64,000 bases of DNA from Rhizodiscina lignyota. Its lineage: Eukaryota. The notes under the pieces were generated by a model. That model ran no database searches. It had not been told where the DNA came from and saw only the letters and a program-made list of their open reading frames with translations. Shown in pieces: positions 9,809 through 44,622 of this stretch. The position numbers were made by a program, and so were the translations under genes. Within the stretch, counting starts at the first letter, position 1. The number at the start of each line of letters is the position of its first letter. Where the stretch lies: positions 2,418,001 through 2,482,000 of the forward strand of contig ML978123.1 of the NCBI GenBank assembly GCA_010015805.1. Reading direction: 5' to 3'.

Positions 9809-10336
9809 TTAGGCAGATGTAGATGTGAATTCTGTGTGATCGAGGTGACGTTGAAATCTCGACTCCAGTGCGCCGGGGGGGTTGGGTTGGTGGGGCAGCA
9901 ACACAGTTGGGTCCGAGTCCTATGATTGCCGTATTATTTTATATTTCGCAACGGCGACGAGGAAAAAATTTATTATAAATTTGGAAAATATAACTTTAGT
10001 ATACTTAAATGTCTACTCTTAATTTTTTTTTAAATTATAATATCTTAATGTGGTGAGATATAAGCGATAGTCTCAAGACATATGCAAGTTCCGAAGAAAC
10101 GGCAGAAAACTGACTTTTTTATATTGTTATTACGTGCTCCCTAATAGTTATATTTTAATTATGAAAAGTGCATATTAGAACTGAGTAGCTAAAATATCCT
10201 TCTGACTTATTTTATTTACAAAAATACTACGGTGTTGTTCAATTATCTTCCCTGGGGCAAGGGAGGGTTTATTTAGTGATATTGTCATATCTATATGTAA
10301 TAGCAGCCTTTCCTAGTGGCTTGATTTTCAGGCCTG

Positions 10337-10486
10337 ACTCCGGTGAGCAAATTCTCCCCGGCTTTGACCAATCAAAGCTAATAAAAGGCCAGTTGGCGCA
10401 GAGGTAGCGCGCCGTTCTTATACTAGTCATTTGCACTCGTATGAATAGTCATGCGGATGTCACGGGTTCGAATCCCGTACGGAGTA
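10337..10486 (+). tRNA. tRNA-Ile(UAU) with two introns: putative spliceosomal intron 10343-10392 and canonical tRNA intron 10423-10450
   Basis: Spliced cloverleaf: acceptor ACTCCGT/ACGGAGT, D stem GCGC/GCGC, anticodon stem CCGTT/TGCGG, anticodon TAT at 10419-10421, T arm ACGGG-TTCGAAT-CCCGT, discriminator A at 10486. Confidence 0.88.
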
Positions 10487-10490
10487 TATC

Positions 10491-10495
10491 TTTTT
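10491..10495 (+). terminator. Pol III-type oligo-T terminator of the tRNA gene
   Basis: T5 run starting 5 nt after the discriminator base. Confidence 0.65.
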
Positions 10496-10779
10496 AAAAG
10501 TTGCATTTCCTATCATTCTGCAAATTTTAAATTAATTTTTTGGGCTGTAGTGGTGAAGAAAATACATTTTTGGTGGCGGTGGTGAGCCGGGCCACGGCGG
10601 GAACCTTTCTCCCATGGACGAAAACTCGGTGATTTTGTACAATAATCAGACAAATTCCAGTTAGGTATTAACAGAGGGATGAAATATTCCATCAGTAGCT
10701 TCTAGGTTTTTAGAAACTCACTCAAATTTAAGACCTAGAGCTCTTCTTCTTCTTCCGAAGCTGTGGCGGGGCTATATTT

Positions 10780-12990: not shown

Positions 12991-13735
12991 ATGGGTAAGT
13001 CACCAACTACCTATATATCCTCTGATTATTACTTAGATCCTCGAATCTGACAATATCTGCAGGTATCGACCTCGACAGACATCATGTGCGGGCCTCGCAC
13101 CGCAAGGCGCCCAAGAGCGACAACGTCTACGTCCGCCTGCTCGTGAAGCTCTACCGATTCCTTGCACGTACGTATTGAGGTTCTCTAATTCATAATGGTG
13201 TCTGATAAATCATTTGCAGGCCGCACCGACTCCAAATTCAACCAGGTCGTTCTCCGCCGCCTCTTCATGTCCCGCATCAACCGCCCTCCTATGTCTCTCT
13301 CCCGCATTGTCGTTAACGGTGCGAATCCGCACGCCGAGGAAGCCCACAAGGGCAAGACGATTGTGATTGTCGGCACTGTCACGGATGACAACAGGCTGAT
13401 GGAGGTTCCCAAGATGACCATCGCTGCGCTTCGCTTCACCGCGACTGCAAGGGCAAGGATTATCAAGGCTGGTGGAGAGTGTCTGACACTTGATGAGCTT
13501 GCTCTGAGGGCGCCGATGGGCCAGAATACGCTGTTGTTGAGAGGCCCGAAGAACGCTAGGGAGGCGGTTAAGCACTTCGGCTTTGGCCCGCATTCGCACA
13601 AGGTGGGTACATTGGGAGAAACTGCGACCATCGTTCTGATGCTGACAACTTTTACAGAAGCCATATGTCGAGAGCAAGGGCAGGAAGTTCGAGCGTGCCC
13701 GTGGCCGCAGACGATCGAGGGGTTTCAAGGTCTAG
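12991..13735 (+). CDS. RPL18: 60S ribosomal protein eL18 (4 exons)
   Basis: Exons 12991-12994, 13063-13167, 13220-13602, 13658-13735 give [11 protein letters not shown]…[15 protein letters not shown]…[25 protein letters not shown]. Confidence 0.97.
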
Positions 13736-32113: not shown

Positions 32114-33899
32114 ATGTCGTCTTTCAGGAGCAGCTGTCAGGCCTCTCGCTCCCTTCTCTATGCGAGCAGCAAGAGACCAATTGCGAGGAGATGTCAACTC
32201 CAGCGATTGCCCGCACGATGGCGGGGTATGGCAATGTCGATGGACAGCCAGCACAAGGTAACTTGAATTGAGTTGAGACGGAGGTGCTACATGCTAATTA
32301 TGCCATGGCAGATTCTCTCTGCCCACCTTGAAGATGCTGATCCTGCCGTCTACGAAATCGTCCAGAAGGTACGCCAGAAACGACTCCTTCACAGACCCGT
32401 TCTAACCACGCGACACTGCATCACAGGAGAGAAGAAGACAGCAGCATTTCATAAACCTCATACCTTCCGAAAATTTCACATCACAAGCCGTCTTGGACGC
32501 ACTGGGCAGCGTTATGCAAAGTTTGTTGCCACTGTCTACGCTGCGAGGGACAATAATTGACGCGGTTCAGATAAATACTCTGAAGGATATCCGGGGGCCA
32601 GATACTATGGCGGCAATCAGTTTATCGACCAGGCCGAGCGACTATGCCAACAGAGAGCGCTACAGACTTTTGGTCTCCCAGAAGACGAATGGGGTGTCAA
32701 TGTCCAACGTACGACCTCCATTCGGTCGGTATCGAACCTAAGCTGACCATCCTACCTTAGCACTCTCCGGCTCCCCAGCAAATCTAATGGCCTATTCAGC
32801 GCTCCTCGAAACGCACGATCGAATCATGGGTCTCGACCTGCCCCATGGTGGTCATCTTTCCCACGGCTACCAGACTCCTACGAAGAAGATATCTGCCATA
32901 TCAAAGTACTTCGAGACACTTCCATATCGACTAGATGAGAAGACTGGGTTAATCGACTATGACAAGTTGGAAGAGATGGCGTCATTGTATAGGCCTAAGC
33001 TCATCATCGCAGGTACATCAGCGTATAGCAGACTGATCGACTATCCTCGGATGCGGCAAATATGTGACAGCGTCGGCGCGTACTTTCTCTCAGATATGGC
33101 CCATATCTCCGGTCTCGTCGCCGCAGGCGTTATTCCGTCTCCCTTTGCGTACTCAGATGTTGTGACCACTACGACGCACAAATCCCTCCGTGGTCCTAGA
33201 GGTGCTATGATATTCTTCCGAAAAGGTGTTCGCCGTGTCGATAAGAAAGGGGTCGAAGAAAAATGGGATCTTGAGTCCAAGATCAATGCATCCGTCTTTC
33301 CTGGGCATCAAGGTGGTCCACACAACCACACCATCACTGCACTGGCGGTCGCATTGCACCAGGCGCAGACGCCAGAATTCAAGGAGTACCAAAAGACAGT
33401 TCTGGAGAACGCAAAAGCCCTTGCTGAACGACTTGGATCATCTAGAGAGCGCGGCGGCTATGGTTACAATATTGTAGGTGGAGGCACAGATAACCATCTT
33501 GTGCTTGTCGATTTGAAGGACAAAGGCGTCGACGGTGCAAGAGTAGAGCGGGTCCTTGAACTCGTAGGGGTGGCGAGTAACAAAAACACTGTTCCTGGTG
33601 ATAAGTCTGCCATGAAGCCCGGTGGATTGCGTATGGGCAGTCCCGCAATGACTACGAGAGGCTTTGGCCCTGACGACTTCAGACGGGTGGCAGACATCGT
33701 TCACAGAGCGTGCACGATCACACAGAGGGTTGATCCGGAGATGAAGGCAAAGGCTGAAAGCTCAGGTAGGAAGAATCCCGGCAGCGTTAAGGCGTTCCAG
33801 GAGATGCTTGGAGAGGGTGAAGATGTGCTGGATATCGTTCAGCTAAGAAAGGAGGTTGAGGATTGGGTTGGCACGTTTAGCCTGCCATGGGAGAAATGA
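32114..33899 (+). CDS. SHM1: Serine hydroxymethyltransferase, mitochondrial type (5 exons)
   Basis: Arg/Ser-rich presequence, then [29 protein letters not shown] and the PLP-binding [13 protein letters not shown]. Confidence 0.95.
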
Positions 33900-43300: not shown

Positions 43301-44622
43301 GCCGCAAGACATCATTACTCGGTCACAGTTTGTATATGCGCCTCAAAGGCTCAGCAGCCATAGCCAGACACAGCCTTCTCAGTCAGCGGAGACTGAAGGT
43401 GGGCAACCGACGGTCGTGGATGCAATTGCGGCTACGATGGTGGGCGAGTGGATGTGGAAGTACGTACGGAGAAGAAAGTCATTCAATGCTCATGAGGCAC
43501 CGGAAGATTTGAGCCGTACCGCACAGGATGGTTCTATCAATGTCACGGGCAACGGCGTACGACATAAGAGATGGGTCTGGATCTCGCCCTATGAGCGAAG
43601 CGTCATGTGGAGCAGCAAGCAACCTGCGTCAGGTACCGCATTGTTGGGCAAGAGCGGCAGGAAACGTAAGTTAACATTATGGGTGATTATGACTCTCAAA
43701 GACATGCTGACGATTTTTAGTGCTCATCCAATCTGTTCTGGACGTCAAAGACGACACACCGCTTCCGCGCGGATCGGGAATACAGCCATTCAACCGTTCT
43801 ATTCTCATATTGACTCCCGCACGTGCCTTGAAGTTTACAGCAATATCTCAGGAGCGTCACTATCTCTGGCTAACAGCGCTCTCCTTCTTAGCGCATGCCA
43901 GCGTCGGTGCCCCCGAACTCGCCGCCATTCCACCTGTACCTCAAGGGGAGCCTGAACCCTCCTCTTCATCTGCTTTCTCCCGCCGCACGCCTATCCGCGA
44001 TTCTGTTCGGCTCACCAAGGACAAGCAGCGCCCGTCTGCCCTATCCAGTCTCACCTCTCGCGACTCTAATAGCCGTAAAGGGGCTATGCTCAGTCCAACC
44101 ATCCATACTGAAGGGCCACTCCCCAACGCTGCCGACGCACCGAGTATCCCTCGCTACACCAACCACGCCCGCAAGCGCAGTATGACTGGCCCCCGCATCC
44201 CGCCTGCCCCAGCAACGCTTCGCAATTTCTCCTCCCCTAATGTCCCGCCCTGTGCAAACTACAGCATAGGCAACGGTCCCGGCTCCGTTGGTGACACATT
44301 CAGTTTTGGCGGACTTAGCCAGCCCGCGAGTCTCTATCAGGGCTCAGGACGTACATCTGAGGCGACCAATGCAAGCGCGCGGACACAGTACGTCGACCAT
44401 GTTGGCACTGTCAGGATGGAAGCATTTGTTGCCTCACGACGGAGCAACGACACAAGTACCACTGGCAGTGTCATGGCACCCAGCAGGATGAGAGCAGGGT
44501 TTGGGATTGGTACGCGTGCGAGGGGAAATACTCAGTGGAGCAGCAGCACCGGAGATCCGAGGAGGAGCGGGATGATTGTTATGGATGAATTTGATGCATT
44601 TGACCCGTTCAAGGGGTTCTAA
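40353..44622 (+). CDS. Coiled-coil protein with C-terminal Num1/Mcp5/ApsA-type PH domain (intron 43666-43720)
   Basis: N-terminal coiled coil, QT-containing repeats and TMVGEWMWKYVRR…RHKRWVWISPYERSVMWS…ILTPARALKFTA…HYLWLTAL. Confidence 0.85.

Follow-up and report, generated by a model that had tools for sequence, protein, structure and literature searches.

The tRNA-Ile(UAU) gene at positions 10337–10486 (+) raises the question of whether a single nuclear tRNA can be interrupted by introns of both eukaryotic splicing systems. The gene belongs to a Dothideomycete fungus and lies in the window, that is, the whole stretch of 64,000 nucleotides of Rhizodiscina lignyota DNA analysed here. It is divided into five pieces, three exons and two inserts, and the answer depends on what the inserts are, whether the first exon is transcribed, and whether the gene is alive.

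Genomic setting and anatomy of the gene

The open reading frames of the window are those of nuclear DNA from a filamentous ascomycete and include a fused PurK/PurE Ade2, a Gti1/Pac2 regulator, NFACT, Sof1, KAR9, and SHMT. The best named relatives of the SHMT are from Dothideomycetes, with 85–87% identity, and the three coding pieces of RPL18 are identical to the Rhizodiscina lignyota protein, except for residues at the intron borders. The RPL18 gene (12991–13732, +) has three short introns, the first of which (68 nt) directly follows ATGG. As this intron splits off the start codon, the first exon is missed by simple lists of open reading frames. The SHMT gene, which is of the mitochondrial type (32114–33899, +), has four introns of 50–58 nt within its first 650 bases. 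The Pfam domain Mcp5_PH (43660–43720, +) is split across two reading frames, which contain profile positions 2–63 and 64–118, respectively, and this indicates one more short intron.

Exon 1 of the tRNA gene (10337–10342, +) has the sequence ACTCCG, represents tRNA nucleotides 1–6 in the 5′ strand of the acceptor stem, and is complementary to positions 10480–10485. It is followed by intron 1 (10343–10392, +), a 50-nt insert with spliceosomal-type signals located between nucleotides 6 and 7. Exon 2 (10393–10422, +) corresponds to nucleotides 7–37, as determined from the Rfam alignment and by ARAGORN from the spliced sequence. It contains the A-box-like element TGGCGCAGAGG (10394–10404), the D arm, and the 5′ half of the anticodon stem, together with the anticodon TAT at 10419–10421. 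Intron 2 (10423–10450, +) is 28 nt long and occupies the canonical position 37/38, directly after A37 of the CUUAUAA loop. Exon 3 (10451–10486, +), which was delimited by the Rfam alignment, ARAGORN, and a B-box match, corresponds to nucleotides 38–73 and comprises the 3′ part of the anticodon stem, the variable loop, the T arm, the 3′ acceptor strand ACGGAGT, and the discriminator A. The B box, GGTTCGAATCC (10465–10475, +), is the sole B-box match within the window. A TTTTT tract resembling a Pol III terminator (10491–10495, +) is positioned 5 nt past the discriminator, and there are no runs of at least four T inside 10337–10486.

When both inserts are cut out by their coordinates, the remaining 72 nt are identified by ARAGORN as tRNA-Ile(tat), and the minimum free energy structure calculated by RNAfold is a cloverleaf of −26.5 kcal/mol. 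The original prediction of a 50-nt GT-AG insert and a 28-nt insert at 10423–10450 is thus exact in both coordinates and lengths. All seven pairs of the acceptor stem of the spliced tRNA are Watson–Crick. The tRNA furthermore has a GCGC/GCGC D stem, a five-pair T stem, G18G19, a TTCGAAT loop, U33, A37, and A73, and 19 of its 21 stem positions are Watson–Crick pairs, with one G-U and one U-U (31–39). Only the removal of both 10343–10392 and 10423–10450 yields the complete cloverleaf, with its acceptor stem of 7 bp and its UAU anticodon. From the unspliced gene ARAGORN makes no call, with or without its intron mode, except for one with a spurious 2.4-kb “intron”. The Rfam model RF00005 matches the contiguous gene only from 10387 to 10486, where it scores 32.6 bits (gathering threshold, 29). 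The alignment marks three non-standard acceptor pairs (2–71, 3–70, and 5–68) and places a 30-nt insertion in the anticodon loop of the model. Standard tRNA finders miss exon 1, and the gene would come out as a weak or pseudo tRNA.

The sequence AGGCCTG, just 5′ of exon 1 (10330–10336), is nearly repeated in the last seven nucleotides of the insert, AGGCCAG (10386–10392), which enables Rfam to align GGCCAGT as a pseudo-acceptor strand. The near-repeat may be due to chance, or it may be a trace of the origin of the insert.

The complementarity of exon 1 to the 3′ acceptor strand was evaluated in a control in which the 160 nt upstream of tRNA position 8 were shuffled 20,000 times with preservation of dinucleotides. 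Any upstream block that completed a 7-bp Watson–Crick acceptor stem across a gap of 20–120 nt was counted as a rescue. Such blocks were present in 177 of the 20,000 shuffles, and in none of the 20,000 was the rescue combined with GT-AG ends. In the real sequence, ACTCCG is the sole Watson–Crick solution in the 160 nt upstream, apart from a one-base slide that results from a repeated G, and only two boundaries are permitted by the tRNA. The failure of all the shuffles to produce a rescue with GT-AG ends, together with the uniqueness of the real solution, shows that a once-continuous tRNA gene has been interrupted between nucleotides 6 and 7. The contig set X1, which is independent of the window, though possibly its own source data, has zero differences, indels, or joints relative to positions 10200–10600.

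Signals of the two inserts

Intron 2 contains the segment GTATGAA (10439–10445), which pairs antiparallel with TTCTTAT (10415–10421), nucleotides 30–36 with the anticodon included, in six of seven positions, one of them a G-U. This bears out the partial complementarity of the segment to the anticodon loop noticed in the original prediction. The combination of position 37/38 with anticodon–intron pairing is found in intron 2 only, as intron 1 is located at 6/7. The intron of yeast tRNA-Ile(UAU) is about 60 nt long, whereas intron 2 has 28 nt; the two share the isoacceptor, the 37/38 site, and the anticodon–intron helix. In a passage of PMC11408192, the canonical intron of yeast tRNA-Ile(UAU) is described as being required for the Pus1-dependent pseudouridines 34 and 36, and Pus1 as needing the anticodon–intron helix on the precursor. 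Judged by its position and pairing, intron 2 is an ordinary protein-spliced tRNA intron of the TSEN type.

Intron 1 starts with GTGAGC after an exonic G, contains the branch motif CTAAT (10378–10382) with the branch A at 10381, 11 nt before its end, and terminates in CAG. As a reference, we used seven introns of the window that were mapped by homology, four of them in SHMT (32258–32311, 32369–32426, 32521–32570, and 32709–32760) and three in RPL18 (12995–13062, 13168–13219, and 13603–13657). The reference introns have lengths of 50, 52, 52, 54, 55, 58, and 68 nt, and their 5′ sites are GTAACT, GTACGC, GTTTGT, GTACGA, GTAAGT, GTACGT, and GTGGGT. Their branch motifs, of the form YTRAY, are CTAAT, CTAAC, TTGAC, CTGAC, or CTGAT, with the branch A located 10–21 nt from the end, and the 3′ end is CAG in six of the seven and TAG in one. 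Intron 1 agrees with these U2-type properties in its GTRNGY-like 5′ site and YAG end, in the spacing of the YTRAY motif, and in its length (50 nt versus 50–68 nt), and its GTGAGC is a better match to U1 than the 5′ sites of most of the seven. The full set of signals occurs in 25 of the 1,662,505 segments of 45–70 nt on the whole plus strand of the window, the real introns included. The lack of a run of four T in the 50-nt insert is uninformative about Pol III, since 56,690 of 63,949 intervals of 50 nt also lack one.

A BHB-type structure of intron 1 was considered and rejected: two of the four pairs of the central helix can form, or three after a one-base shift of the boundaries, and a relaxed solution does not exist either. 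The claim that the two inserts represent different intron classes holds at the level of their signals, in that one has the 37/38 position and the anticodon pairing, whereas the other has no bulge-helix-bulge (BHB) and has spliceosomal signals like those of the window's own introns.

Intron 1 also contains an 8-bp hairpin (10360–10379), the strands of which are GGCTTTGA and TCAAAGCT, and the stem takes in the first two bases of the CTAAT motif. The stability of the hairpin is −9.1 kcal/mol with a z-score of −1.16, which is the lowest per nucleotide among eight introns and not significant. The loop and stem of the hairpin spell GACCAATCA, a word similar to the CCAAT box.

In our searches of open-access papers and bioRxiv, no published description of a spliceosomal-type intron in a tRNA gene was found. 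A passage of PMC5855946 lists fungal spliceosomal introns outside mRNA genes, namely in the gene for U6 of S. pombe and, in other fungi, in genes for U1, U2, U5, and rRNA; it cites Tani and Ohshima (1989, 1991), Takahashi (1993, 1996), and Bhattacharya (2000). Like these introns of snRNA and rRNA genes, intron 1 is short, has GT-AG ends and a branch site, and interrupts the gene of a structural RNA. However, unlike the snRNAs, its tRNA host is not a component of the spliceosome and has no obvious proximity to the active site. Intron 1 differs from the U6-type cases in that the A box is located downstream of the intron and that the same gene contains a second, tRNA-type intron; moreover, the splicing of intron 1 is a prediction.

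Ectopic and multiple tRNA introns are described, in sections of PMC3728597 and PMC4090602, from Cyanidioschyzon merolae and from cryptophyte and chlorarachniophyte nucleomorphs. The gene analysed here resembles them in that it is a nuclear gene for a eukaryotic tRNA and has multiple introns, one of them outside 37/38. However, the introns of those organisms depend on a BHB or are very short, and they are excised by the tRNA endonuclease, whereas intron 1 lacks a BHB, has spliceosomal signals, and is inserted in the acceptor stem of a fungal tRNA. The non-canonical insertion in a nuclear tRNA gene is also a likeness to the eukaryotic tRNA pseudogenes with insertions in their arms that are mentioned in part of PMC4090602. 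A pseudogene of this kind usually has many synonymous copies beside it, whereas here exon 3 is unique in X1 and the intron signals are complete.

The decayed copy and the number of genes

Comparison of sequences within the window identified a second, decayed copy of the gene, copy B (1700–1810, −), in addition to the gene described above (copy A). Positions 1810–1766 (−) of copy B are identical to 10337–10381 in 44 of 45 nucleotides, which cover exon 1 and the first 39 nt of intron 1. tRNA position +1 is precisely where the homology begins; further upstream, the flanks of the two copies are unrelated. Because copy B keeps both exon 1 and the insert, starting at +1, these two pieces form one gene unit. 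The “insert” of copy B is 53 nt long and has the form GTGAGC...GCTAAAC...TAG. The remnant TAGCACACCGTTCTTATA corresponds to the D arm and the 5′ half of the anticodon arm, matches the end of exon 2 in 16 of 18 positions, and is then followed by ...GGAGTA. The T arm, the B box, and an Rfam tRNA match are all absent from copy B, and no simple deletion or permutation was found by which copy B would derive from copy A. With a lowered Rfam threshold, the surroundings of copies A and B yielded no further tRNA and nothing else credible.

The intact state of copy A is not trivially expected, because copy B is a dead member of the same family. Retro-copying of 5′-processed precursors is known, and given that the homology starts at +1, copy B could be a retro-copy of a 5′-processed, intron-containing intermediate. 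The 45 nearly identical nucleotides beside the decay in the rest of copy B, where sequence is rearranged or deleted, may be the result of recent gene conversion, which would weaken the argument for an old intron. Gene conversion between tRNA genes is known from a passage of PMC4090602. Retro-copying could account for the contrast equally.

In X1, the 36-mer 10337–10372 forms a separate contig with a depth of 325, compared to about 157 in its flanks, which indicates two copies of the 36-mer. The X1 contig across 10343–10600 is unbroken and of single depth, and therefore no other X1 locus shares a 31-mer with exon 2, intron 2, or exon 3. A second gene with an identical 36-nt exon 3 would have broken this contig, as the 36-nt repeat did, from which we infer that there is no identical paralogue. 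Copy A is probably the only gene for tRNA-Ile(UAU), although a diverged paralogue may exist. The contig graph fits the earlier characterization of the tRNA as low-copy: only exon 1 and the start of the insert occur twice, and exon 3 is on the unbroken single-depth contig. ATA accounts for 61 of the 307 isoleucine codons (20%) in nine open reading frames of the window, which implies that a decoder of AUA is needed.

Membership of the insert in a family of introner-like elements was considered as well. As described in a section of PMC4457414, introner-like elements of Dothideomycetes are short introns that spread to new sites. The insert has in common with them the fungal class and its shortness. 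However, introner-like elements form multi-copy families, whereas the present sequence occurs twice in X1, and both copies are tRNA-Ile-derived. We rejected a multi-copy introner because the depth in X1 and the matches in the window give two copies only.

Searches for relatives in other DNA returned bacterial sequences. The pattern of anticodon arm and T arm had one match in a metagenome scan, a bacterial tmRNA-like 3′ end that is not a relative. The contigs of prokaryote genomes contained no match to 27 nt of exon 2, and the 26-mer of the T arm and acceptor had 37 loci in them, all of which are bacterial tRNAs. These 26 nt, the T arm with the 3′ acceptor strand, recur without change in tRNA genes from numerous genomes of Bacteroidota, Streptococcus, and Actinomycetota. 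A 26-mer this common among bacterial tRNAs makes short tRNA words unsuitable as lineage-specific probes.

Transcription, competing explanations, and order of processing

The start of transcription is the weak point in the case for a functional intron 1. In tRNA-type Pol III promoters, transcription usually starts about 20 bp upstream of the A box. Since the A box of this gene (10394–10404) is downstream of the insert, the rule places the start at about 10374, inside the insert, and exon 1 would be left untranscribed unless the start is set by a TATA-like element or by another polymerase. A TATA-like element, TATATGTA, can be read at 10292–10299 (+), 38–45 nt upstream of +1. This candidate upstream promoter could direct a start ahead of exon 1. 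With a start near 10322–10327, the transcript would have a 5′ exon of only some 10–20 nt. Pol III transcripts are reportedly not substrates for splicing in animal cells, a result said to come from Sisodia et al. in 1987. The Pol III-transcribed U6 gene of S. pombe contains a spliceosomal intron according to a passage of PMC5855946, and a Pol III host is therefore possible.

The sequence TTTCCTAGTGG (10309–10319), located downstream of the TATA-like element and some 20 nt before exon 1, agrees in 9 of 11 positions with the A-box consensus TRGCNNAGTGG. It is followed by a TTTT run at 10325–10328.

Two explanations that dispense with the spliceosome carry little weight. If there was no intron, the occurrence of ACTCCG would be coincidental, and the functional molecule would be the contiguous tRNA 10387–10486, the mismatched acceptor stem of which is either tolerated or edited at the 5′ end. 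The contiguous form does score above the Rfam gathering threshold (32.6 versus 29 bits); however, the mismatches 2–71, 3–70, and 5–68 would break the acceptor helix, a Watson–Crick rescue with GT-AG ends was produced by none of the 20,000 shuffles, and copy B keeps ACTCCG and the insert as a unit from +1. The known cases of 5′ editing are limited to the first three positions of mitochondrial tRNAs, which also counts against this explanation, and we regard it as the most improbable of those considered. It is only marginally more probable that the intron is real and is removed by the tRNA splicing endonuclease or another endonuclease together with tRNA ligase, the GT-AG ends being incidental. 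The eukaryotic tRNA splicing endonuclease measures from the mature body of the tRNA to position 37/38, the junctions of intron 1 lack a bulge-helix-bulge, and a full set of spliceosomal signals at the genome's own spacing is very unlikely to be incidental. What speaks for removal by proteins is the predicted precursor, in which exon 1 stays paired with the 3′ acceptor strand, and the precedent of the endonuclease-removed ectopic and multiple introns of Cyanidioschyzon merolae and nucleomorphs in the cited sections of PMC4090602 and PMC3728597.

A more serious competitor is that an intron or another 50-nt piece was inserted in the acceptor stem and the gene is dead. Pol III would then start inside the insert, exon 1 would never be part of the RNA, the acceptor stem would be crippled, and AUA would be read by another tRNA-Ile or by an inosine-bearing one. 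The position of the A box downstream of the insert and the three non-standard acceptor pairs in the Rfam alignment of the contiguous form are in line with a dead gene, and the decay of copy B shows that this family yields pseudogenes here. In addition, non-canonical insertions in eukaryotic tRNA genes are generally taken as pseudogenes, as stated in a passage of PMC4090602. However, the rest of copy A is intact, including the stems, the conserved bases of the D and T loops, the B box, and the T5 tract, whereas copy B, which has the same insert, is decayed. No other locus in X1 shares a 31-mer with exon 3 and could replace the gene in an identical form, ATA makes up a fifth of the isoleucine codons, and the TATA-like element is placed where a start ahead of exon 1 is possible. 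The quality of the intron signals does not discriminate here, because an intron that arrived by reverse splicing would have flawless signals even in a gene that died afterwards. For this reason, the sequence signals give only a slight preference to the view that the insert at 6/7 is a genuine intron of the spliceosomal type, next to the canonical TSEN intron at 37/38 of the tRNA gene, and a dead gene, although unlikely, has to be reckoned with.

If the insert is a working spliceosomal intron, the precursor would start upstream of 10337 and include exon 1. U1 would bind at GUGAGC behind the exonic G and U2 at CUAAU, and the spliceosome would remove the 50 nt up to the CAG 3′ end in the nucleus. 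The removal of intron 1 would join ACUCCG to U7 and thereby complete the acceptor stem. The ends of the RNA would then be trimmed, and TSEN would cut out the 28 nt of intron 2 to give the mature tRNA.

The original prediction stated that this processing must be ordered, most simply with the spliceosome first. Structure prediction for the full precursor retains both the T arm and the pairing of exon 1 with the 3′ acceptor strand, so that structure alone imposes no order, and the “must” does not stand. The sequence of events itself is plausible on the grounds of compartments. In budding yeast, the precursor of tRNA-Ile(UAU) receives its pseudouridines in the nucleus and loses its intron in the cytoplasm, near mitochondria, according to a passage of PMC11408192. 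If the TSEN step is cytoplasmic in this fungus also, as extrapolated from budding yeast, it would impose the spliceosome-first order.

We consider it possible, though somewhat short of an even chance, that the transcript of the sole tRNA-Ile(UAU) gene needs both the spliceosome, acting at 6/7 in the nucleus, and the tRNA splicing endonuclease, acting at 37/38, before it can read AUA. A splicing gate on AUA decoding is a conjecture. If the first insert is spliced, the spliceosome is able to act on a tRNA precursor, and tRNAs would join the short list of spliceosomal introns in non-mRNA genes. Two machineries that are in separate compartments in yeast would act in sequence on one RNA of 150 nt, and the insert would represent a fresh, datable gain of an intron by reverse splicing into a non-spliceosomal transcript, a pre-tRNA. 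If true, this would be the first tRNA known to require both eukaryotic splicing systems, and the locus would be a natural record of the reverse splicing of an mRNA intron into a pre-tRNA.
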